From contig CAZIYE010000001.1 of NCBI GenBank assembly GCA_964543385.1, forward strand, positions 551,123 to 615,122: 64,000 nt of DNA. Reading direction: 5' to 3'. Positions 6,412 through 62,823 of the stretch are shown here, piece by piece (the first letter of the stretch is position 1; each line of letters starts with the position of its first letter). The notes beneath the pieces are model-generated. The model saw only the letters and a program-made list of their open reading frames with translations. It had not been told where the DNA came from and did no database searches. Origin of the DNA: an uncultured Candidatus Saccharibacteria bacterium (GTDB lineage: Bacteria > Patescibacteriota > UBA1384 > XYA2-FULL-43-10 > 1-14-0-10-43-13). The translations under genes and the position numbers were made by a program.

Positions 6412-7176
6412 TCAGCGACTAAATCCCATGCCGGGGTCATCTGGTAAACCGGTGACCGTGTAGGTGGTGGTTTCTTCTATTGTTTCTCCAGTGTCAAGGT
6501 TTGTCACGATGACATGGAGGGTGCCCTCGCCATTAGCTGCGGCGTAGAAGCCATCAGCTGTTTTGGCCAGTGCATTTCTTTCTCCCGGGACATCCCACTC
6601 CGTTTTGATATGGTACCACGAGGTACCAAAACCAATGCGGAAGTAGTGTGCACCGGTGATACTAAAATGCCTGGTGCGATCTGGCATGACTTGGGCCATG
6701 TCTCCAACGGTTGTGTCAAAGACAGTTGTTAATGCAGTGCCAATAGGCGGTTTGGGATTGCAGATAAAGATATACTCACCTGCATTCCATTTGAAGGCGC
6801 CCTGTTGTGCAGTCGCAGTTGCAGTGTAGGCTTTGCCAGCCGCAACTATGGTGCTCAAGGTTGGCATAACTCCTTTTACATCATTGCTGATGCTCAGGCC
6901 CCCCCCAGGGGTGTTTTCGGTCTCGGTCACTTTGATCGTGACCTCTATTGGTAGCGGCTGGGGTGACCAGGTGGCGATTGCCTTCAAGGTCGTGCCAGCG
7001 GTGAGCTTGGTCGTACCCTCGGAGAGGGTGACCATGTTTCCAGCGCCATCCGTGAAACGGAGGCTGAGCCGGGGTTGCTCGTTGGAAGTCGAAGTGGCAC
7101 CAGTGCCACAGCCGGCCAGAATTCCGGCGCAAGCGATGATGAGCAACAGGCTCATGGCTGAGAGGATACGGCGCAT
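6412..7176 (-). CDS. Secreted lipoprotein of unknown function, compositionally foreign (GC-rich)
   Basis: Signal peptide plus lipobox (LLLIIACAGILAGC). The Thr/Gly/Ala-rich beta-type sequence is markedly GC-rich relative to its flanks. Strong SD AAGGAG 6 nt upstream of the ATG. Confidence 0.6.
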   Translation of the reverse strand: MRRILSAMSLLLIIACAGILAGCGTGATSTSNEQPRLSLRFTDGAGNMVTLSEGTTKLTAGTTLKAIATWSPQPLPIEVTIKVTETENTPGGGLSISNDVKGVMPTLSTIVAAGKAYTATATAQQGAFKWNAGEYIFICNPKPPIGTALTTVFDTTVGDMAQVMPDRTRHFSITGAHYFRIGFGTSWYHIKTEWDVPGERNALAKTADGFYAAANGEGTLHVIVTNLDTGETIEETTTYTVTGLPDDPGMGFSR

Positions 7177-16937: not shown

Positions 16938-16946
16938 GACCTAAGA

Positions 16947-16975
16947 TTGACACAACAACACTTATCTTATATAGT
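16947..16975 (+). promoter_or_regulatory. Near-consensus sigma70 promoter TTGACA-17-TATAGT driving the GC-rich islet 1 small ORF
   Basis: gaTTGACAcaacaacacttatcttaTATAGTgtc. Divergent and back-to-back with the pyrG promoter. Confidence 0.5.
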
Positions 16976-17016
16976 GTCAACACAACGAACCCCCGATCCA
17001 TTCTGAAGGAGACACC

Positions 17017-17175
17017 ATGGGAACAAAGACCGACGCTGCTGATCACAGCCAACAAACCCTACCGCCGGATGTTGCGCCGGTGCACGACTCTGTACTTGCC
17101 GATGGCACTGTCATTAAGGGGAATGAAGAATCCCCTCAGTCAGTGTCGCCCGACAAGAAGCCAATTAGCGGCTAG
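17017..17175 (+). CDS. Small ORF (52 aa), hydrophilic and acidic, in GC-rich islet 1 (hypothetical; not in the ORF track because it is under 60 aa)
   Basis: Strong SD ctGAAGGAGacaccATG. Product MGTKTDAADHSQQTLPPDVAPVHDSVLADGTVIKGNEESPQSVSPDKKPISG. Followed by a 9-bp GC hairpin. The codon usage and GC are atypical for this genome. Confidence 0.3.
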   Translation: MGTKTDAADHSQQTLPPDVAPVHDSVLADGTVIKGNEESPQSVSPDKKPISG

Positions 17176-17199
17176 TCTGCTTGGCACGTTCTTTCTCTT

Positions 17200-17227
17200 G
17201 GGTCCCCGTCGCTTGCGCCGGGGACCC
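17200..17227 (+). terminator. GC-rich hairpin after the islet 1 ORF (GGGTCCCCG-tcgcttgcgc-CGGGGACCC)
   Basis: Perfect 9-bp stem. The T-run (tctatttttt) starts about 17 nt downstream, so this is a non-canonical but plausible terminator. Confidence 0.4.
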
Positions 17228-17250
17228 TTAGCTTATCCCTGTCTATTTTT

Positions 17251-22237: not shown

Positions 22238-22924
22238 TTATAACTCATCTTTCAAGATATCGTCGAGCTCATCGTTCAATTTTGAAAGTCTCTCAACTTC
22301 ATCGTTGACTTTTTCTTTCTTAGCAGCTTTTGGAGCAGAAGCCTTTTTTTCTGGCTTAGCCTCTACTACTTCCTCTGTTTTCTCTTTCTTAGCAGCTTTT
22401 GGAGCAGAAGCCTTTTTTTCTGGCTTAGCCTCTACTACTTCTTCTTCTTCTACCTGAATCTCTTCTTTTGCAGCTTCTTCAACGACTTCTGCTTTTTCTT
22501 CTTGGCGCTTTGCCATTAGGCTTTTGCTATCTTTGGTTTCTCCTATAATAGCTTCAAATGATTTTTCGCCACCGACAACTTCTTCGATCTCATTTGCTTG
22601 AGCGATCTCCTCAGCAGAAAGGCTTATTTTTTCATTGCTGAGCTCTTTGATAATCATTAACTGGCGAAGAACACCATCAATGTGTCGAAGGTCTTTCTCA
22701 AATTCGATTGCCTTGTTTGCTGGCAAATCAAAATAAAGGGTAACGTAAGTAGCAAAATCCTGTTTTTTAATAGGATATGCCAACTTTCTTCGTCCCCAAA
22801 TGTCTTCCTTGGTAGTCTTCCCGCCAAGTTCTTTAACGAAACCGGAAACTTTTCCGGTCACTTTGTTCAAATCACTCTCTGGTACCTCATCAGAAACGAG
22901 GTACGTAAGCTCGTACTTTCTCAA
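22238..22924 (-). CDS. rpsF: 30S ribosomal protein S6 with a long charged C-terminal extension containing a 23-aa tandem repeat
   Basis: S6 core MRKYELTYLVSDE...ATYVTLYFDLP... followed by about 125 aa rich in E/K/A, with EEVVEAKPEKKASAPKAAKKEK duplicated. Confidence 0.85.
   Translation of the reverse strand: MRKYELTYLVSDEVPESDLNKVTGKVSGFVKELGGKTTKEDIWGRRKLAYPIKKQDFATYVTLYFDLPANKAIEFEKDLRHIDGVLRQLMIIKELSNEKISLSAEEIAQANEIEEVVGGEKSFEAIIGETKDSKSLMAKRQEEKAEVVEEAAKEEIQVEEEEVVEAKPEKKASAPKAAKKEKTEEVVEAKPEKKASAPKAAKKEKVNDEVERLSKLNDELDDILKDEL
22319..22440 (-). repeat. 69-nt tandem duplication (2 copies) within the rpsF 3' extension
   Basis: cttagcagcttttggagcagaagcctttttttctggcttagcctctactactt is repeated with a 69-nt period. 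Confidence 0.8.
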
Positions 22925-23068: not shown

Positions 23069-24154
23069 TTATACGTTGAATCTAAATACTACGACGTCGC
23101 CGTCTTTCATTACATAATTTTTGCCTTCAGTGCGGACCAGACCATGTGATTTGGCGCCTAACCAGCCACTCTGTGCATAAATATCCTGCCAGGGAACTAT
23201 TTCCGCAGCAATAAAGCCTTTTTCAAAGTCACCATGTATTGCTCCTGCTGCCTTTGGCGCAGTGTCGCCTTGATGAATTGTCCAAGCACGAGTTTCGTCT
23301 TCACCAGTCGTCAAATAGGTTTGAAGCCCTAATGTTTTAAAAGCCTCTTTTATTAAGCGATTTAGGCCAGAATCTGTTATCCCTAGAGTTTCGAGGTATT
23401 CACTCTTTTCTGGGTCTGTAAGATCATTTAATTCTGCTTCAAGCTTGGCAGAAATCGGAATAAATTGATCGGATTTCTCAGCAGAGATTACCTTTTTCCA
23501 CGAGTTATCTGCAAGCTGTTCTTCGCTGACATTAGCTATATATATAATAGGTTTTTGTGTCATCAGGCCAAGACCTTTTAGAACCTCTTTCTCCTGTTCG
23601 CTAAGGTCTGCTTCTCGAGCATTTTTACCAGCATAAAGCTGATCCTTTATCTTTTGCAGGCCAGAATGGGCAAATTTAGACTCTTTGCTGCCTGATTTAA
23701 GCTCTTTTTCGATAGAGAAAAGTCTTTTCTCTACAGTCGAAATATCGGCAAGTTGGAGCTCAGTTTCTATTGTTGAGATATCATCAAAAGGGTTGATCTT
23801 GCCGTCGACATGAGTCACATTGTCGTCGACAAAAAATCTAGTGACCATGCCGACAGCGTCACATTCTCGGATATGGGCAAGGAATTTATTGCCAAGACCT
23901 TCTCCCTTGGAGGCACCACGAACAAGTCCTGCAATATCAACGAATTCGACGACAGCCGGTACAATCTTTTTTGATTTAGAAATTTCAGCCAATGGTTTCA
24001 AGCGCTCATCGGGAACCTCGACAATACCAACATTTGGCTCAATAGTGCAAAAAGGATAATTTGCTGCTTCTGCGTGAGAGCCCTTTACTAGAGCGTTGAA
24101 AAGTGTAGATTTACCTACATTTGGCAGTCCGACGATACCTATCTTTAATGACAT
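23069..24154 (-). CDS. ychF: Ribosome-binding ATPase YchF (Obg-family GTPase)
   Basis: MSLKIGIVGLPNVGKSTLFNAL...NYPFCTIEPNVGIV. TGS-like C-terminus. 361 aa. Confidence 0.9.
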   Translation of the reverse strand: MSLKIGIVGLPNVGKSTLFNALVKGSHAEAANYPFCTIEPNVGIVEVPDERLKPLAEISKSKKIVPAVVEFVDIAGLVRGASKGEGLGNKFLAHIRECDAVGMVTRFFVDDNVTHVDGKINPFDDISTIETELQLADISTVEKRLFSIEKELKSGSKESKFAHSGLQKIKDQLYAGKNAREADLSEQEKEVLKGLGLMTQKPIIYIANVSEEQLADNSWKKVISAEKSDQFIPISAKLEAELNDLTDPEKSEYLETLGITDSGLNRLIKEAFKTLGLQTYLTTGEDETRAWTIHQGDTAPKAAGAIHGDFEKGFIAAEIVPWQDIYAQSGWLGAKSHGLVRTEGKNYVMKDGDVVVFRFNV

Positions 24155-24246
24155 TTGTTCCTTTTACGTTTACTTTCAAATAATAATATTTAAAAAACTC
24201 CGGCTAAATATACCAGATCTAAGCGTATTTGTGAACAAGCAAGCAT

Positions 24247-24275
24247 TTGACTAGCAAGAAATTTAGGGGTATAAA
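24247..24275 (+). promoter_or_regulatory. Near-consensus promoter TTGACT-17-TATAAA for the GC-rich islet 2 small ORF
   Basis: catTTGACTagcaagaaatttaggggTATAAAaat. Confidence 0.45.
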
Positions 24276-24332
24276 AATACTTAATCAACCCCCAAGGTTG
24301 ACCATCCAAACCCCATAGGAGGTCACTGTATC

Positions 24333-24497
24333 ATGGCTAGCAAGCCGACAGGTAAAGGTTTCACCTCGTCGCAGATGAAATCTCGAAGGCTCAAGGAGCA
24401 GCGGCAAAAGCGCCGTGAAAGCGAAGCGCTCGAAAAGGCGCGACGTAATCGCGAATCGCAGATGCGGCAACAGGCCCGCCGGTGGCAACCGGCATAA
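24333..24497 (+). CDS. Small highly basic ORF (54 aa) in GC-rich islet 2 (hypothetical; under 60 aa, so absent from the ORF track)
   Basis: Strong SD atAGGAGGtcactgtatcATG. Product MASKPTGKGFTSSQMKSRRLKEQRQKRRESEALEKARRNRESQMRQQARRWQPA. Arginines use CGN codons, unlike host genes. Followed by a GC hairpin. Confidence 0.3.
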   Translation: MASKPTGKGFTSSQMKSRRLKEQRQKRRESEALEKARRNRESQMRQQARRWQPA

Positions 24498-24526
24498 CTT
24501 AGCGCACTAATGCGCACTCATACTAT

Positions 24527-24565
24527 CGGCTCCCTGCACCTCGTGTACGGGAGCCGAAGTCTTTT
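24527..24565 (+). terminator. GC-rich hairpin plus U-tract after the islet 2 ORF (CGGCTCCC-N14-GGGAGCCG aagtcttttc)
   Basis: Perfect 8-bp stem with a U-rich tail. A small GCGCA-ctaa-TGCGC hairpin lies just upstream. Confidence 0.45.
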
Positions 24566-24658
24566 CAGTCAAGTTTTTATTACATGAAATTGCTATTTTA
24601 TTGCAATATATTTCCGTTTTGTTGTTAGCATAATTGCTTTTTAGTATACTTAAAAGCA

Positions 24659-27600
24659 ATGACTACAGAAGATGGGGACAAACCAATTGCGGTAGCCGAA
24701 AATCCCGCAGAAGGAAGCGAACTGGAGGAAATCGAAGCATCGGATACCGCTTTGCTGCACAGTGATTTTGATGTGGCTGTTTCTGAGGTTGTGAGTCGAC
24801 AGGAAATAGCGGCTGCAGTTTTTGATGAAGAACAAACCATTTTATCGCAGGCAAGCTCAACGGAAGAATTTATTGGAATTGAGAATGAGACAATCCCGAT
24901 CGAATTAGTGGCTAGTATCCAGGGGATTGAAAAATTATTTGAAGAAATTGACGTAATTGATATTAAGGAATTCCCATCACTGATCCTTAAAATCAAGATA
25001 CTTGCTGATGAAGCAAAAAAATTGCTCAAAAAGTCAGAGGATGGTCTTCAGGCTAGTGGAGGTGAACTTCTTGGTATTGAAAGTGAAATCAAGAAAAAAA
25101 CAACTACTCTGAGTGAGGAAAATGAAAAAGATTTTTGGGGAAAACTTTTCCGCATTGGAGAGCGCAGTTCGCTTAAGAAAGCAATAAAAGATTTGAAGGT
25201 CAAAGAAGGCAAAATTTCTACGATTAAAGATGATCAATTAGGCAGAAAAACTGATGCCGAAAAATTATTAAGAAAAGTTGAAAAATATCTTGATGATACC
25301 ATTGTCAAACTTGTCACTAAGATTTTCCAAAGTTTAAAAGCTGAAACTGAAAAAACTAGAGAAAAAATGACTGATCCGCGGCTAAGAGCTGGTATGAATG
25401 AGCAGCTCGTCGATTCAGAATTTTTACCACTTTTTGAGCAACTAAAATTAGAGGGGAAATATTTTAGCGATGAGGAGATATCCTTTTATCTGCAGCACAG
25501 AAAAGAAATTGCCAGAGACGGGATTCAAGATACGTATAGTATGTCAGCTGAAGATCGAGAAGCATATGAAGCCAAATTTGATCAAATCAGAAAATTAGAG
25601 GAAAGAAGTGGCTATAAATTATACTGGAAGTCAACGGCCCTGAGTCTCGATCCTGATCGAGGTTCGACACCAGATGAGAGATATGACGATATTTTCAAAT
25701 TGTTAACAGAAATAGGTTTGCGCCAAAAAGTTGATGCCGTTCTTGATCTTGTGGGTGATCTTGGTATAAGCACTGAAGCAAAAACGAAAATCTATACTGA
25801 AACGAAGAAGGAGTTCTTGGAATATTATTATAGTTATCAAGATCTAGATAAACGCCCAGACATTCAAGTCTACGCTGATTTTTGTGAAATGCCGGGAGAA
25901 TTGGGAAGATGGCAAACAACTAGGGATATTTGTATAGAGTCCGGCCTGATTGATGAGGCAACTTTCCATCAAGCCGAGGAAATACTAATAGACTATTTAC
26001 AGCAAAAATATCTTAGTAAAAAAGGTGGGGAACCAGATACACAAGTCGAACAGGTTTTTAACTTGGGTAATCCCGGGGTAATCCCCGTTCTTTATCAGTT
26101 TGTAGTTTTGCACGGTAGCCACTCAGGCGAACGGGCAATGAGGCGTCTTCTTACGCTAATAGACGAAAAATATTCCCACGAAGAGGTGCTACAGTCAACC
26201 AAAGATTTGCCAGGTGATGACCAAAAAATTTTTGAGTTGCTCCTTGATAAGGACTCATGTCTTAATAGATTTGCTAGAGAAAGCTATTTATGGACAATGT
26301 TTGGTTACCTGGGAGATCCAAAAAAAACTCTGAGGAATGAGGCATACACCCAGAAATTGCTTGATAGTGGATACCCAGAAGACAAAGCAGCCGAGTTTTT
26401 TACCGGTAGGTGGTGGGGGAAGGACTTACTTATCGGTTGCGTTGAAATTGCCGAGGTCTTGGGCATAGATAAGGAGATAATTATCGAAGATTATTTCAAA
26501 GACATCACTCGTTCAGTTTACCTTGAAAGTCCAGATTCTTTAGAGATTATTGGGTTAGTAGCAAAAGAGCTGGGAGTGCCAGCTCTAGAAATTTATCACC
26601 GCATTGAGTCTGAGATGGTGCGAAGTAAAGAAGATAAGCAAAGCGTTCATTCTCCGCAGGGCATTATTGAATCTTGCAGAGTTTTGTCTGACATTACCGG
26701 CGAAAGCTTGAAAGCTGTGGTTGATCGATACTATCCAATCAAGGCTATTCCAACGTATCAAGAAAAGTACGCTGAAATATTTGAGGAATTAGCACAGATA
26801 CTAGAGGTGCCAGTCGGCTCTCTTGTTTTAGAGAATCTCTTACCACAATTGTCATCCAAAAGGGGAGATAGAGGCGGACTCTATATTGTCAATAGCAAGG
26901 ATAAAAGAAATTTTTTATTCAATTCTGTTAGCTCTTTTTTACAAACCAATCCCGTACTTAGTTCCACAGAAGATTATTGCAAAATTTTCAACCTATTCGA
27001 TGAATTAAATAAAGATTGGTTGGGCTCTGATTTTGAAAAATTTTCTGATGAAGAAAAAGAGAAGATAAATTCAGGCAAAGTTGATCTTGCTAGATCCTTT
27101 GGAGAGATTTTAGCAAAAGGCGGAAATCGAGAAGAGATTATTCGGGCAATTCGGGCATTTGCTCCGGTTATATCTCTGGATGACTCAAAGTATGCTGAAA
27201 TATTTACTCTTTTGGCTGAAACAATGGAAATGGCTCCAGAGTCGTTGGTATCAGAAACGCTTATTTTCGACGAAAAGCTCGGACTTATTCTACCAAAAAT
27301 CAAAAAAAGTGACTCAAGGTGTTTGATCGGAAAGGCACTTTTTGAATTGGCCAAAACCGATCGAGTCCTAAGTTCTGCCAAAGAGATTAAAAAAGTTTTT
27401 AATGCTTTGTCGGCCCTCCAGTTGATTGGGGCAGAAGAAGATCCATCTGATGAAGAAATCAAGGTTATTTTTGAAACAAAGGAATACCTGATTGGCTATG
27501 TGAGGGAAAAAATGAAGAATGATCCAAATAAAATAGACATAATTGGAACACTTATTTCCCTCAAATCAGTTACCTTCCAAGACTTGTTGCTATTTTCATC

Positions 27601-30286
27601 TTTCCGAGAAGAATTTCCTGACTCGCAGACCTTTGAAAAGATTTTTTCGGATGGTTTAATTGCAATTGATCCTAATTTGCAGGAAATTTTTGATAATCCT
27701 AGGAAACTCGGCACAATGAGACCGCAAATTATTTCAAAAATTATCGATTATATTGAGGAGGCTTACAAGGGAGAGGAGATTGATAATGAAAAAATAGCCA
27801 AGGAACTTCTTTCTTTGCTGAATAATATTCGTCATATCTTCGAAAGTAGTGATTCCACGATTATAGAAAAGCGTTCTCTCTTCTTGGAGAAATATACTTT
27901 AGAAGATGCCAAAGATCCTGATTTTAAAATTGCAGTCGAATCATTAATGGAACAAGGGCTGTCATTGCACGAAGCGATTAAGCAGCTTGTTCAGGGTGAT
28001 TTTGAAGATATTTTAATCGCCTCTGGTAGTATTGATATGCAAAAACACTACAAAAAGAAGCTGAAAGACCCAAATATATCAGAAGAAGATCGGTTGGACT
28101 TAGAGAAAAAGCTTAAGTGGATGAAAGAGGCGTACCTACAAGCTGACCAGAGAAATAGAGAAATTTTTCAACGACTGCAGAGAGGGGGCCTGACAGAAGA
28201 GGAAAGAGCAGAAATTGCTTGTCCGCTAGCAACAAGTGTATCCCAAGTTGGTCCTCCAGATGTCACTTACCCGATCCTTGACCAAGGCACTCTATGTGAT
28301 GCTTTACTTGGTGAAATTGCTAAAGACCAGGAGAATAATCTTGGAGCTCATATTTCAAAAACAAGTCGTGTACCAGGAGATAGAAGTACTTTGGCTGGTA
28401 GATTGCCTTCTTATGGTAATCCTCATGGCACTCAGGTCAACCGTATCTATGGAGATGTCAGTGCTAATAAATATCAGTCATATGGACCGGATGGTACAGC
28501 AGAAACACACTTTCAGATGGGGCCAGCTCATCAATGCATTATGCTCGGTCTCCCCAGTACCGAAATATCTGCCATTGTTATTTCTGATACCTCCTTTCTT
28601 GCGGACCAAAAGAAGTACATTGCCATGAAAAACTTGTTTATTCCAATTCTCGATTCCAGTGGCAATAATCTCTGGACTCCTGAAGAGTTCGATCAAATGA
28701 AAATATTTTATTATGCGCTGAATTATAAGGGCTATCCCTTAGCCGTTATTGATAATGTTTATAAATATTATCTGGAACTAAATCAGACAACTGAGAAAAC
28801 AAAACATAATATTGTCTTGAATAAGGCCGTTGATTTGGTTAAAAAGCAGATAGAAAATGATGAACAAGGTTTTGAGGATTTGGCGGTGCTCGTTGACTTC
28901 TTGAAGAGCAATGATCTTAACACCAAGGATATTCAATGGTATGAGGAGGCAGATTTCGAGCAAGTGATGCAAATGGTTGAAGAAAATGTCGGCGCAAAAA
29001 ATCGTTGGAAAGCGAGGGATATACTCTTCATATATCCGGATGACCAAGCTAAAACTCATAGAACAATTGGCGATAGCGTTGATTATGAAAGGCAGATAAC
29101 GAGGCGTCCCCATGGTTTCATCGACTCATTTCTGGACGATCAGCTTGGATACATTTCCCCTGGAAATATAGATGAAAGACGAGCTGCCGAAGGCCACCTA
29201 ACAAGTTTAATGTTCCGCGATTCGATTTCAAGGCAGGCGCGAGAAGGCATAATTGTTGATGACGTGATTGAAACTGCAGAGTATATGACAGAAAAGAAGA
29301 AGGAGCTGATGGTCAAGATTTGGGAAGACGCATGGGAAGATATATTGAAGATGGATTCCATTGATAAAGCTATGGCGGGGCTTTATAAAAAGGCAATAAT
29401 CCCAGTTGTGACTGGTAGCGGTGGCCGAGGAGAGATAACGTTGGGCTCAGATTTGGATTATTCACTTCTAGTTGATGATGATCACTTGTTGGAAATACTT
29501 CCGGAGAGAACTGATCTAGCTCAATTTATTAAAGATCTTGGTAATTTTGTTAATAATGTTCTGGCCATATCAATTAATAAGTCTTTAGGTGAAGCGGGGA
29601 TCAGAGCTGATGCTGGATTGGCACGGAAAGACCGGCAACCGTTTAGCCTGATTAGTCGGATTCGGCAATTTGAGATTAATCCTTCTCAGGGCCGCCAGGA
29701 AGAAGAGCCGACTGAGATTATTAGTAATTATCCTCTTTTTGCAGAACACCAAGGGATTGTAGCTAAATGCAAGGAAGATCTGATTGTTCACAATCAATCT
29801 GCCCATCTACTAGACTCATATATTCTTCGAGATCTGGAAACTGGCTTTGGAAAGGCTTCTTTCACGGCTGAATTTGAGAAATTATATGCCTGTGCAGCAA
29901 GTGGAGAATTATTGCAAAAAATTAAAGAATCACTCCAGCGTTCGTTAGTCTTCAAAATTAACTATCTTCTCTTTTCTGCTTTTGACAAGGGAACTATAGA
30001 TCCGAGTGAGGCTAGTAAAATCCCTTCTGGAACGATTGATACAATTAATTTTCTTAAAGATCATAAAATTTTGACTGATCAAGAAGCGGAAATTTGTATT
30101 GAATTATGGGCAATCACTTACAAAATTAGATTTTTGGGGGAAGTATTCTCTCCAGAAGGTCAGAATGCAGATGAGCTCAAGAAGGTGAAGAATATTACAT
30201 TCAAACTAGATGATATATCCTTTGCCGAAAGAGTTCGCCTTTTCGATCTGCTTAAGCTTTTCAAGGATAATGTACTTTATAAATAG
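24659..30286 (+). CDS. Giant (1875 aa) cytoplasmic multidomain protein. N-terminal acidic/coiled-coil region, long alpha-helical repeat region, and a C-terminal GlnD/GlnE (DUF294)-type nucleotidyltransferase domain.
   Basis: No signal peptide or TM. Internal repeats YAEIFEELAQILEVP / YAEIFTLLAETMEMAP. C-terminal motif PVVTGSGGRGEITLGSDLDYSLLV matches the DUF294/GlnD consensus GSLGRGEQtLaSDqDnalif. No P-loop or kinase motifs. Confidence 0.6.
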   Translation: MTTEDGDKPIAVAENPAEGSELEEIEASDTALLHSDFDVAVSEVVSRQEIAAAVFDEEQTILSQASSTEEFIGIENETIPIELVASIQGIEKLFEEIDVIDIKEFPSLILKIKILADEAKKLLKKSEDGLQASGGELLGIESEIKKKTTTLSEENEKDFWGKLFRIGERSSLKKAIKDLKVKEGKISTIKDDQLGRKTDAEKLLRKVEKYLDDTIVKLVTKIFQSLKAETEKTREKMTDPRLRAGMNEQLVDSEFLPLFEQLKLEGKYFSDEEISFYLQHRKEIARDGIQDTYSMSAEDREAYEAKFDQIRKLEERSGYKLYWKSTALSLDPDRGSTPDERYDDIFKLLTEIGLRQKVDAVLDLVGDLGISTEAKTKIYTETKKEFLEYYYSYQDLDKRPDIQVYADFCEMPGELGRWQTTRDICIESGLIDEATFHQAEEILIDYLQQKYLSKKGGEPDTQVEQVFNLGNPGVIPVLYQFVVLHGSHSGERAMRRLLTLIDEKYSHEEVLQSTKDLPGDDQKIFELLLDKDSCLNRFARESYLWTMFGYLGDPKKTLRNEAYTQKLLDSGYPEDKAAEFFTGRWWGKDLLIGCVEIAEVLGIDKEIIIEDYFKDITRSVYLESPDSLEIIGLVAKELGVPALEIYHRIESEMVRSKEDKQSVHSPQGIIESCRVLSDITGESLKAVVDRYYPIKAIPTYQEKYAEIFEELAQILEVPVGSLVLENLLPQLSSKRGDRGGLYIVNSKDKRNFLFNSVSSFLQTNPVLSSTEDYCKIFNLFDELNKDWLGSDFEKFSDEEKEKINSGKVDLARSFGEILAKGGNREEIIRAIRAFAPVISLDDSKYAEIFTLLAETMEMAPESLVSETLIFDEKLGLILPKIKKSDSRCLIGKALFELAKTDRVLSSAKEIKKVFNALSALQLIGAEEDPSDEEIKVIFETKEYLIGYVREKMKNDPNKIDIIGTLISLKSVTFQDLLLFSSFREEFPDSQTFEKIFSDGLIAIDPNLQEIFDNPRKLGTMRPQIISKIIDYIEEAYKGEEIDNEKIAKELLSLLNNIRHIFESSDSTIIEKRSLFLEKYTLEDAKDPDFKIAVESLMEQGLSLHEAIKQLVQGDFEDILIASGSIDMQKHYKKKLKDPNISEEDRLDLEKKLKWMKEAYLQADQRNREIFQRLQRGGLTEEERAEIACPLATSVSQVGPPDVTYPILDQGTLCDALLGEIAKDQENNLGAHISKTSRVPGDRSTLAGRLPSYGNPHGTQVNRIYGDVSANKYQSYGPDGTAETHFQMGPAHQCIMLGLPSTEISAIVISDTSFLADQKKYIAMKNLFIPILDSSGNNLWTPEEFDQMKIFYYALNYKGYPLAVIDNVYKYYLELNQTTEKTKHNIVLNKAVDLVKKQIENDEQGFEDLAVLVDFLKSNDLNTKDIQWYEEADFEQVMQMVEENVGAKNRWKARDILFIYPDDQAKTHRTIGDSVDYERQITRRPHGFIDSFLDDQLGYISPGNIDERRAAEGHLTSLMFRDSISRQAREGIIVDDVIETAEYMTEKKKELMVKIWEDAWEDILKMDSIDKAMAGLYKKAIIPVVTGSGGRGEITLGSDLDYSLLVDDDHLLEILPERTDLAQFIKDLGNFVNNVLAISINKSLGEAGIRADAGLARKDRQPFSLISRIRQFEINPSQGRQEEEPTEIISNYPLFAEHQGIVAKCKEDLIVHNQSAHLLDSYILRDLETGFGKASFTAEFEKLYACAASGELLQKIKESLQRSLVFKINYLLFSAFDKGTIDPSEASKIPSGTIDTINFLKDHKILTDQEAEICIELWAITYKIRFLGEVFSPEGQNADELKKVKNITFKLDDISFAERVRLFDLLKLFKDNVLYK

Positions 30287-30360: not shown

Positions 30361-31728
30361 ATGAAAAAAATGAACAAAAAACAATCTGTTGCCCTAAGCT
30401 CGGTTTTTGCTAGTTTTGGTTTGACGGCTATGAAGTTAGTTGTAGGTATCGCTACTGGCAGTATGGGTATAATCTCTGAGGCAGCTCACTCAGCATTGGA
30501 TTTTGTTGCCGCTTTAATGACCTATTTCGCAGTTAACATTGGAGATAAACCTGCTGATAAGAGGCACCCTTATGGCCATGCTAAGGTTGAAAGTGTCTCT
30601 GCACTCTTAGAGACATGTTTGCTTGTCCTTACTAGCGCGTGGATAATCTATGAGGCAGTAAAAAGGTTAATTCACGGCAAATCGGAGGTTGAAGTTGCTT
30701 GGTATTCATTCACTGTGATAATAATCTCTATTGTCGTGGACATATCTCGGTCTAGAGCACTTTCTAAGGTTGCAAAAGAGACTAAAAGCCAGGCTCTGGA
30801 AGCCGACGCTTTACATTTCAGTTCAGACATTTTAAGCTCCTTGGTCGTTCTGGTGGGATTAATCTTTGTTTATTTCGGCAATACCACAGCTGACTCAATC
30901 GCAGCGATCATAGTTTCTTTTGTAGTACTATATGCTGCCTATGATCTAGGGCGTAAGACAATTAACGTTTTAGTAGATACTGCTCCAGAGGGTTTGGTTG
31001 ATGAAATAAATCAGGCTGCCAGTAGTGTTGCCGGTGTCATAGGAGTTGAAAAAATTCGTGCCAGAGCAGTTGGGGCGGCAGTAATCATCGATATCACAGT
31101 ATATCTGCACAGAAAAAACAATCTTCTCCTAACTCAAAAAATCTGCCAGCAAATAGAGGATAAAATAAAAAAAGATTTTTCCGATTCCGATATTACTATT
31201 CATACTAAACCTCTGCCACTAAATAGCGAAACAATTTTCGAAAGGGTTCAATTAATTGCCTCGACACATGGTCTCGCGGCCCATAATATTATTTTACACA
31301 GAGACTTCAAGGGCAAAAAATTAGACTTTGATCTTGAGGTTGATGGTAATTTAAACTTGCAAGAGGCTCACAGAATAGCTTCAGATTTGGAAAGAGAGAT
31401 AGAAGCTGAATTCGGGGATATAGAAATAAATAGTCATATAGAACCACTGAAATCCGAGATTATCTCCGGGAAAAATGTAAGTGGAGTGAAAGAGGCGAAG
31501 TTAAAAAACAAAATTTTACTTATAACAAGAAACATTCCTCTCATAAGAGACATTCATGATATTTCAATAATTGAGGATAATGATAAACTTTTCATTTCCC
31601 TCCATTGTCTATTCGACAAAAATTCTTCTCTGGATGAAGTTCACAGCGTAACGAGTAGACTTGAATACACAATTCGCGAAAATATGTCTGAGGTCTCCAA
31701 GGTTTCTATCCACGCTGAGCCAGCCTAA
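30361..31728 (+). CDS. Cation diffusion facilitator (CDF) family divalent-metal efflux transporter with extended C-terminal cytoplasmic domain
   Basis: HSALDFVAALMTYFAVNIGDKPADKRHPYGHAKVESVSAL (CDF signature). 6 TM. Confidence 0.85.
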   Translation: MKKMNKKQSVALSSVFASFGLTAMKLVVGIATGSMGIISEAAHSALDFVAALMTYFAVNIGDKPADKRHPYGHAKVESVSALLETCLLVLTSAWIIYEAVKRLIHGKSEVEVAWYSFTVIIISIVVDISRSRALSKVAKETKSQALEADALHFSSDILSSLVVLVGLIFVYFGNTTADSIAAIIVSFVVLYAAYDLGRKTINVLVDTAPEGLVDEINQAASSVAGVIGVEKIRARAVGAAVIIDITVYLHRKNNLLLTQKICQQIEDKIKKDFSDSDITIHTKPLPLNSETIFERVQLIASTHGLAAHNIILHRDFKGKKLDFDLEVDGNLNLQEAHRIASDLEREIEAEFGDIEINSHIEPLKSEIISGKNVSGVKEAKLKNKILLITRNIPLIRDIHDISIIEDNDKLFISLHCLFDKNSSLDEVHSVTSRLEYTIRENMSEVSKVSIHAEPA

Positions 31729-62382: not shown

Positions 62383-62548
62383 TTGTTCTTAATATAACAC
62401 AAAAATAGAGGAGTAAAAATAAAACTCTATTTTTCTTAGAACAAAAATGAAAAAAACGAAACCTTCCGCAGAAGCGGTTCTGGTGTTTGCTGTTATGCTA
62501 GATGGCGGCGATGGGGGAGCATGATTGCCCTCCCATCGCCTGATAGAA

Positions 62549-62725
62549 TCATGCAGTCACCTGCAGTGGCACATTCTGCGAGTAGGTCTTTGGAAGACCA
62601 TGACCATCGCATATTGGGCAAGTGATGTCTCTTGCATCGAATACGTTCCCGCATTCTTCGCAGAGCTTATCGCCAGTCCCAACAGTTTGCTGACGGTTGT
62701 CAGCATCGGTGTCCATATTAGGCAT
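62549..62725 (-). CDS. Small zinc-ribbon protein (58 aa; CxxC-N17-CxxC) in GC-elevated islet 3
   Basis: Strong SD AAGGAGGtcatcATG on the minus strand. Product MPNMDTDADNRQQTVGTGDKLCEECGNVFDARDITCPICDGHGLPKTYSQNVPLQVTA. Co-directional with flanking operon genes. GC-rich hairpin GGCGATGGG...CCCATCGCC downstream. Confidence 0.4.
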   Translation of the reverse strand: MPNMDTDADNRQQTVGTGDKLCEECGNVFDARDITCPICDGHGLPKTYSQNVPLQVTA

Positions 62726-62823
62726 GATGACCTCCTTCTGGTCTTCTCAAGCGCAACAGCTCAAATTCTCAAAATTATAACGTAAAAAAGACTACCAGTA
62801 TACAGTCAAAACTGTGGATAATG

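Follow-up and report, generated by a model that had tools for sequence, protein, structure and literature searches.

The small ribosomal proteins bS21, bL34, bL36, bTHX and Sra are chains of 40-70 amino acids (aa) with an isoelectric point (pI) above 11, an extended or helical shape and no hydrophobic core, and some ribosomal proteins control their own synthesis through their mRNA. Chlamydial Hc1-type and protamine-like proteins combine a very high positive charge with helical, low-complexity sequence rich in lysine, arginine, glutamate and glutamine. The ribosome-rescue factors ArfA and BrfA are small basic peptides with a K-G-K-G-like motif and a functional 3′ hairpin in their mRNA; for the locus described here they served as a lead only. 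At the level of RNA, 5′-terminal hairpins have an established role in stabilizing mRNA, and a GC-rich islet in an AT-rich genome is a typical sign of a structured RNA. Here, we compare with these systems a GC-rich islet, islet 2, in a stretch of 64,000 nucleotides (nt) of contig CAZIYE010000001.1 (assembly GCA_964543385.1) from an uncultured Candidatus Saccharibacteria bacterium; this whole stretch is called the window. Islet 2 lies in a spacer of 504 bp between the start of ychF and an open reading frame (ORF) of 1875 codons, called here the giant gene. The GC content of the spacer climbs to 0.60-0.625 over approximately 24310-24584, against 0.386 for the whole window (38.6 per cent, AT-rich). 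We think it probable that the islet is a self-contained and presumably singly transcribed gene, located beside ychF, for an inherited, very basic small protein that is likely to bind nucleic acid.

The comparison that supports this reading covers four lineages: the window itself; the mutually identical contigs L086-L089, L092 and L093; contig L090; and contig L095. In all of them the ATG, the reading frame and the stop codon of the small ORF are kept, the ORFs are 53-55 codons long, and the gaps in their alignment consist of whole codons only (a single codon at position 2, and two at the C-terminus). The ratio of the proportions of non-synonymous and synonymous differences (pN/pS) was lowest in the frame of the ORF for six of the six lineage pairs, with values of 0.39-0.48 as compared with 0.54-2.18 in the five other frames. 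The corresponding ratio of substitution rates (dN/dS), calculated according to Nei and Gojobori, was 0.27-0.37 where dS was estimable. Between the window and L086, the differences at the first, second and third codon positions number 18, 12 and 28, respectively, third positions thus changing most. The length of the ORF alone is no evidence of coding, because the minus strand of islet 2 also carries overlapping ORFs of 67 and 64 aa and several frames stay open in every lineage. Only the frame of the small ORF, however, has a conserved ATG with a Shine–Dalgarno (SD) sequence ahead of it, and the open antisense frames are without other support. The search for known RNAs proposed in an earlier note on this DNA was carried out with Rfam over the whole window at gathering thresholds and gave no match. 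The lowest pN/pS in the frame of the ORF, the whole-codon indels and the lack of an Rfam match therefore indicate a protein-coding gene and not a known RNA. Protein coding is thereby shown as far as sequence comparison can show it.

The earlier note had described islet 2 as a mini-gene complete in itself, located upstream of the giant gene, with a small and extremely basic product. The promoter, the AGGAGG sequence, the 54-codon ORF and the GC hairpin were each found where it had placed them (Table 1), and the description as a mini-gene is borne out by purifying selection on the ORF and by the retention of the promoter, the SD sequence and the hairpin in the relatives. Independent assemblies from JGI and Logan data contain the identical sequence, so islet 2 is no assembly artefact. 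Gene calling at the locus is uneven: the small ORF was called on JGI and ENA contigs and not on Logan contigs of the same strain. The exact small protein is recorded only from JGI, on a contig of 962 bp, and the giant protein is recorded from NCBI and Logan.

Table 1. Features of islet 2, its neighbours and the two other GC-rich islets, with positions in the window.
Feature	Position	Strand	Basis
ychF	23069-24154	minus	Pfam YchF-GTPase_C and MMR_HSR1
Promoter-like site for ychF, TTCACA-17-TATATT with TG extension	24207-24235	minus	Promoter scan
Predicted sigma-70-type promoter of the small gene, TTGACT-17 nt-TATAAA (hexamers 24247-24252 and 24270-24275)	24247-24275	plus	Sequence, relatives
Stem-loop TCAACC-CCCAA-GGTTGA, about 1-4 nt past the predicted transcription start	24285-24301	plus	Read from the sequence
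SD sequence AGGAGG, 10 nt upstream of the ATG	24317-24322	plus	Sequence
Small-protein coding sequence, 54 aa, MASKPTGKGF...RRWQPA	24333-24497	plus	ORF list, homologues of 53-55 aa, pN/pS
Small hairpin of the 3′ untranslated region (UTR), GCGCA-CTAA-TGCGC	24502-24515	plus	Sequence, folding
3′ hairpin and TCTTTTC, presumed intrinsic terminator	24526-24566	plus	Sequence, relatives
1875-aa ORF, weak nucleotidyltransferase-domain match, not part of the small-gene unit	24659-30286	plus	ORF list, Pfam
Cation-efflux (CDF) gene	30361-31728	plus	Downstream of the giant ORF in the window
Islet 1, 52-aa mini-gene	16947-17250		Strong SD sequence, GC hairpin, consensus promoter confirmed by scan
Islet 3, 58-aa ORF (62549-62725)	62440-62815	minus	Strong SD sequence, long GC hairpin

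The signals that flank the ORF are conserved as well. In the 64 kb of the window there is one occurrence of the motif TTGACN-N17-TATAAA, where chance would give 0.15. Its counterparts are TTGACC-18-TATAAA in L086 and TTGACG-17-TATAAA in L090, and the four lineages all retain TTGACN-17/18-TATAAA back-to-back with the promoter of ychF. The locus thus has near-consensus -35 and -10 hexamers with a spacer of 16-18 nt, kept in the relatives, as is characteristic of promoters of the sigma-70 type. A generic promoter scan skipped this site only because it accepts no -10 hexamer without T as the sixth base. The same scan placed a promoter-like site for ychF on the minus strand, so that the spacer would carry two divergent, back-to-back promoters; the TTGTGAA and AATATACCAGAT blocks of the ychF promoter region are conserved in L086 and L090. 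The stem-loop at the predicted 5′ end is present in all four lineages, with a stem of 6-9 bp, a loop of variable length and one change from U-A to U.G; by analogy with other 5′-terminal hairpins, it would stabilize the mRNA. A GGAGG sequence is located 8-11 nt upstream of the ATG in L086, L090 and L095.

Downstream of the ORF, the 3′ hairpin (24526-24557) reads TCGGCTCCC-TGCAC-CTC-GTGTA-C-GGGAGCCGA. Its outer stem of 9 bp is formed by TCGGCTCCC (24526-24534) and GGGAGCCGA (24549-24557), and its inner stem by TGCAC and GTGTA around the loop CTC. In all four lineages the hairpin lies approximately 30 nt past the stop codon. It is identical to that of the window at 31 of 32 nt in L086 and at about 29 of 32 in L090, and shows one change from G-C to G.U in L095. 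This conservation is far better than that of the synonymous sites of the ORF (pS 0.63-0.88) and also better than that of the DNA of ychF (74-80 per cent identity). The run of U residues that follows has six members in L086 and four in the window and is poor in L090 and L095, and a scan for consensus terminators made no call. Since only L086 has a good U-tract, termination is the default reading of the hairpin, yet the hairpin may do more. A second, smaller hairpin, GCGCA/TGCGC, is common to the window and L086 (GCGCACTTATGCG) and absent from L090 and L095. Taken together, the comparison indicates that islet 2 is a genuine small gene with its own predicted promoter and terminator.

An exhaustive HMMER search of 1.84 billion cluster representatives recovered the full-length homologues P0003 (53 aa, 50 per cent identity, E 8.5e-8) and P0004 (55 aa, 53 per cent identity, E 1.5e-6), and a profile search added P0005 (55 aa). 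With three clusters at 50 per cent identity among these representatives, the comparison defines the small protein as a new orphan family of narrow distribution. A word-index search of 5.8 billion proteins with the 54-aa query matched only the identical sequence, and a pattern search with the small protein found no relatives among the matches listed from metagenome and viral contigs. The pattern of the 3′ hairpin, searched for in metagenome contigs, was found only in contigs of the L086 lineage and in two chance high-GC matches (L091 and L094, both unrelated). Comparison with phages and plasmids by blastn and tblastn gave no match to islet 2 or to the small protein.

In L086 and L087, the gene order is GroES-GroEL-PRC-EFP-S18-SSB-S6-YchF on the minus strand, followed by the small ORF on the plus strand, the CDF gene and a gene for a 5′-3′ exonuclease. 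The order in the window is the same except for the giant gene. In the relatives, the small ORF is accordingly divergent from ychF and followed by the CDF gene. The YchF proteins of the window, L086 and L090 are 85-91 per cent identical, and these contigs therefore represent related species or genera of one clade. The small proteins are approximately 50 per cent identical; compared with the value for YchF, this means that the small gene is fast-evolving but retained. The nearest named organism according to YchF (76 per cent) is an uncultured Candidatus Saccharibacteria metagenome-assembled genome, L006, the only useful relative among genome contigs. Its contig stops exactly at the start of ychF, which places the orthologous site of the small gene out of view. 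From this synteny, the small gene appears to have been vertically inherited in a narrow Saccharibacteria-like clade at a fixed site between ychF and the CDF gene, and its constant partner, as judged from the four lineages, is the chromosomal site beside ychF and not the giant gene.

Two observations concern the relatives' contigs themselves. In L090, the sequence downstream of the small-gene hairpin (1541-1654) starts with about 60 nt resembling L095 and continues with AT-rich sequence in place of the CDF gene; the stretch from the small gene to the CDF gene may be a place where insertions recur. The ENA contig L095 opens (1-30) with a remnant of the Nextera transposase adapter, CGTGGGCTCGGAGATGTGTATAAGAGACAG, and the reads were therefore untrimmed before assembly.

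The small protein has a pI of 11.9 and a net charge of +12 in the window, and values of 11.7-11.9 and +12 to +14 across the lineages. Twenty-one positions are invariant and cluster as the N-terminal motif KPxGxGFxSxQ, the central NRE and the C-terminal ARRxQPA. AlphaFold2, run with the four-sequence alignment, predicted a single uninterrupted helix over residues 8-50 (mean predicted local distance difference test score, pLDDT, 83). Hydrophobic residues are almost lacking, which makes it unlikely that the protein folds into a globular domain of its own. The small protein most likely binds nucleic acid, most plausibly ribosomal RNA (rRNA) or the ribosome, or else DNA; the analogy is with small ribosomal and nucleoid proteins, and the strong expression signals and the neighbourhood of translation genes fit it. 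Searches for the known small ribosomal families (bS21, bL34, bL36 and others) in Pfam, NCBIfam and the PDB gave no profile or ribosomal-chain match. Likenesses to RpoZ, through an NR-x7-ARR spacing, and to L34 were dropped for want of a profile match; a likeness to ArfA and BrfA was dropped for the same reason and because a stop codon lies ahead of the hairpin. Nothing relevant came from a search of the literature on Saccharibacteria ribosomes and GC islands.

We favour the following model of the locus. The small-gene unit would be strongly transcribed from its own promoter; the 5′ hairpin would protect the mRNA and the 3′ hairpin would end transcription; the product would act as one long cationic helix; and the conserved 3′ hairpin may in addition be a site of post-transcriptional control.

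Several points weigh against this model. Four lineages are known, two of them mutually close, so that independent comparisons are few, and their synonymous sites are almost saturated. The promoter, the transcription start, the terminator and the translation of the small gene are all predictions, and three of the four lineages have a weak U-tract behind the hairpin. The invariant residues define no single face of the helix (p = 0.33). Pfam assigned no family to P0001, P0003 or P0004 and gave only sub-threshold DUF matches for P0005; NCBIfam held nothing relevant for the small protein; the best hit of a profile search against PDB chains was an unrelated HNH protein (E 1.4); the best PHROGs match (E 0.013) was obtained for one member of the small-protein family only; and PADLOC gave none. 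Charge, helicity and neighbourhood form the whole basis of the functional assignment, and for a ribosomal protein one would expect a wider distribution than three clusters at 50 per cent identity. Finally, the model does not explain a synonymous GC excess of the small ORF that is absent from the relatives.

The RNA itself offers two further explanations. In the four lineages, the full transcripts fold better than their dinucleotide shuffles (z -4.1, -5.7, -4.0 and -5.7), and so do the coding sequences alone (z -2.0, -4.2, -3.3 and -4.1). The product could be a previously unrecognized, lineage-specific ribosome- or nucleoid-associated protein whose mRNA is regulatory, the 3′ hairpin and the fold of the coding region serving as autoregulatory binding sites and the GC content reflecting selection on RNA structure and not a foreign origin. 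We regard this extension of the small-protein reading as unlikely, although it is the least improbable of the alternatives.

Somewhat less probable still is a structured RNA of about 280 nt, non-coding or with a dual function, as the primary nature of the locus; its GC content would be due to selection on RNA structure, and the ORF would be secondary or incidental. The folding values just given speak for it, as does the 3′ hairpin, which is near-invariant, including its loop, while synonymous sites are saturated. GC-rich islets are moreover the usual setting of such RNAs in AT-rich genomes, and several open frames are to be expected in GC-rich, stop-poor DNA. However, besides the absence of an Rfam family at gathering thresholds, a permissive Rfam scan of 24150-24700 gave a single match in the islet, to Acido-Lenti-1 on the minus strand (E 8.4, 11 bits), and ARAGORN found no tRNA or transfer-messenger RNA gene in the window. 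RNAalifold, applied to the four transcripts, returned an unfavourable covariation term (+1.38) and kept the terminal hairpin alone, with no consistent structure over the coding part, and the internal hairpins occupy different registers in different lineages. Because no column-wise conserved fold was found within the ORF and the registers shift, we treat the RNA structure as a secondary property of the locus. Codon-periodic substitutions, with pN/pS lowest in the frame of the ORF, and the conserved ATG, SD sequence, stop codon and whole-codon indels also argue for a protein. The suggestion in the earlier note that the region could be a structured RNA therefore finds no support as regards its primary identity: there is neither an Rfam match nor a covariation-backed fold past the terminal hairpins.

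The GC excess raises the question of import. The small ORF has a GC content of 0.593, whereas 0.467 is expected from its amino-acid composition and the codon usage of 26 ORFs of the window (z 5.5), and its GC at third codon positions (GC3) is 0.63 against approximately 0.35 in the other genes of the window. Its arginine codons are of the CGN type in 10 of 11 cases, compared with 40 per cent in a set of 26 long window ORFs that stand for the host genes, which upholds the observation of the earlier note on the CGN arginine codons of the small ORF. The genes for S6, SSB, EF-P, GroEL and YchF are without such a GC excess. About 8 of the 20 additional GC points come from a composition rich in arginine, alanine, glycine, proline and glutamine, and the remainder is synonymous. 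In the orthologues, GC content is nearly fully explained by amino-acid composition (z 0-1.7), and the excess at the codon level is therefore specific to the lineage of the window.

These values could point to islet 2 as a recent import, either a horizontally acquired cassette like islet 1 or a xenologous replacement from a GC-richer relative. In addition to the foreign-like codon usage, there is a mild phylogenetic discordance: the DNA of ychF groups the window with L090 (80 per cent) over L086 (74 per cent), whereas the ORF and 3′ UTR group it with L086 (65 per cent) over L090 (55 per cent), together with the shared GCGCA hairpin and terminator loop. GC-rich insertions also occur in the group, as islet 1 is absent from L086 and a 1.4-kb block of 55-65 per cent GC is present in L006. 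Nevertheless, all relatives have the gene at the same site with a homologous promoter, 5′ hairpin and terminator, and islet 2 is therefore no de novo insertion. The sequences behind the discordance are short and saturated, and the CDF gene, compared over its first 252 nt, shows no clear grouping. No donor was found in the collections searched, namely proteins, metagenome and viral contigs (among the matches listed), phages and plasmids. We consider recent import improbable, and more so than the structured RNA; the GC excess could be due to replacement of the allele from a GC-richer relative or to lineage-specific selection on the mRNA.

The earlier note had also proposed a functional pairing, in which the small basic protein would be the substrate or regulator of the nucleotidyltransferase-like product of the giant gene; a role as cofactor is considered together with it. 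The two genes are adjacent on the same strand in the window, the stop codon of the first being 161 nt from the ATG of the second, and the weak U-tract after the small-gene hairpin makes some read-through conceivable. The giant protein has a weak match of the Pol-beta type (DUF294, 22.1 bits against a cutoff of 21, residues 1578-1635, hence borderline), a GSGGRGE...DLD motif and weak PADLOC echoes. The distribution of the two genes, however, speaks clearly against a link. The giant gene is absent from L086, L087 and L095, which represent two lineages, and in these the small gene is kept directly before the CDF gene, which starts approximately 125 nt past its hairpin; the N-terminus of the L095 CDF protein is about 92 per cent identical to that of the window CDF gene at 30361. 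Among the lineages compared, the giant gene, an ORF of 5.6 kb, occurs only in that of the window, and it has host-like GC. A word-index search of 5.8 billion proteins returned the giant protein alone, and the genome collection gave no relatives. The giant gene further has a promoter-like site of its own, TTGTTA-17-TATACT, with a palindrome over its start, and the conserved hairpin separates it from the small gene. Because the giant gene is missing from three related contigs, the idea of a substrate or regulator is not supported, and we judge it very improbable. The earlier note had named a giant gene conserved without the ORF as evidence that would refute it; the pattern is the inverse, the ORF being conserved and the giant gene not.

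The palindrome at the start of the giant gene deserves mention in its own right. It extends over 28 bp (24633-24660), is formed by ATTGCTTTTTAGTA and TACTTAAAAGCAAT with 93 per cent complementarity and no spacer, and covers both the ATG of the giant gene and its -10-like TATACT. It may be an operator, or a 5′ hairpin of the mRNA that occludes the start of a nearly leaderless gene.

The most improbable alternative is that the small ORF is a leader peptide or upstream element for the CDF gene, with the hairpin as attenuator: ORF and hairpin do lie about 125 nt upstream of that gene on the same strand in L086, L087 and L095, and the hairpin is conserved beyond the needs of a generic terminator while the U-tract is weak in most lineages, but the peptide is long (53-55 aa) with motifs at both ends and neither a sensing codon run nor metal-binding residues, no conserved anti-terminator pairing exists, L086 and the window both have a promoter-like site between the hairpin and the CDF gene, and in the window the small gene is intact despite 5.8 kb of unrelated gene between it and the CDF gene.

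The other GC-rich islets of the window share the form of islet 2. Islets 1 and 3 each have a strong SD sequence, an ORF of 52-58 aa and a GC hairpin; a consensus promoter at standard spacing was not detected by the scan for islet 3. When islets 1, 2 and 3 were aligned together with the ends of a GC-rich lipoprotein gene, no shared sequence emerged. The flanks of islet 1 (window approximately 16940-17250) align with L086 1160-1368, where the 52-aa mini-gene itself is missing; this alignment suggests an insertion specific to the lineage of the window, or else a loss in L086. The statement in the earlier note that islet 2 has the same architecture as islet 1 thus holds for form and not for history: with islet 2 inherited and islet 1 missing in one relative, the islets are not one class with one history. 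The ORF of islet 3 carries a CxxC...CxxC zinc-ribbon signature (Pfam Zn_ribbon_3, E 6e-5, below cutoff), with AGGAGG 5 nt before its ATG.

Further observations concern neighbouring and GC-rich genes. A lipoprotein-like gene of 254 aa on the minus strand (6412-7176) has 54 per cent GC (z 8.9 over expectation), a signal peptide with a lipobox cysteine (…LAGCG…), a TTGACA-17-TAATAT promoter and a GC hairpin, and no family match; it is probably foreign DNA. In L006, a block of 1.4 kb with 55-65 per cent GC and two ORFs (1200-2600) lies between ychF and a TruD-like gene, where the window has rpsF directly after ychF; GC-rich insertions next to ychF therefore recur in the group. The window S6 gene (22238-22924, minus strand) encodes a C-terminal extension of approximately 100 aa, acidic and lysine-rich, with a duplicated VVEAKPEKKASAPKAAKKEK segment, and L006 has a comparable extension, as do the longer S6 genes of L086 and L087.

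The analysis adds a genuine conserved small-protein gene, missed by some gene callers, to a Saccharibacteria-like genome of the candidate phyla radiation. It also corrects an argument from guilt by association, as the constant neighbour of the small gene is ychF with its cluster of translation genes and not the giant nucleotidyltransferase-like gene. Should the small protein prove to be a ribosome or nucleoid factor, the reduced machinery of these ultra-small symbionts would have gained a lineage-specific component. As an orphan family of narrow distribution, its importance is modest.

Among the known systems, ArfA and BrfA differ from the small gene most directly in the layout of the mRNA. 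Their hairpin or terminator lies inside the ORF and gives rise to a non-stop mRNA, whereas the stop codon of the small gene precedes the hairpin by about 30 nt in four lineages; no sequence similarity to these peptides was detected. Chlamydial Hc1-type and protamine-like proteins share with the small protein the very high positive charge and the helical, low-complexity sequence rich in K, R, E and Q; no homology to them was detected, and the N- and C-terminal motifs are peculiar to the small-protein family. As a transcription unit, the locus resembles a canonical mini-operon with a 5′ hairpin of the ompA type in its promoter spacer of 17-18 nt, its hairpin near the 5′ end and its GC-rich stem-loop past the stop codon. 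It departs from that model in the short or absent U-tract of three of the four lineages and in a hairpin and loop conserved beyond the needs of termination. The small protein differs from the small ribosomal proteins bS21, bL34, bL36, bTHX and Sra in that it has no sequence match to any of them, a very narrow distribution and a fast evolution. In its length, its pI above 11, its predicted helical shape without a hydrophobic core, the strength of its expression signals and its neighbours ychF, rpsF, rpsR and efp, it is nevertheless like them.

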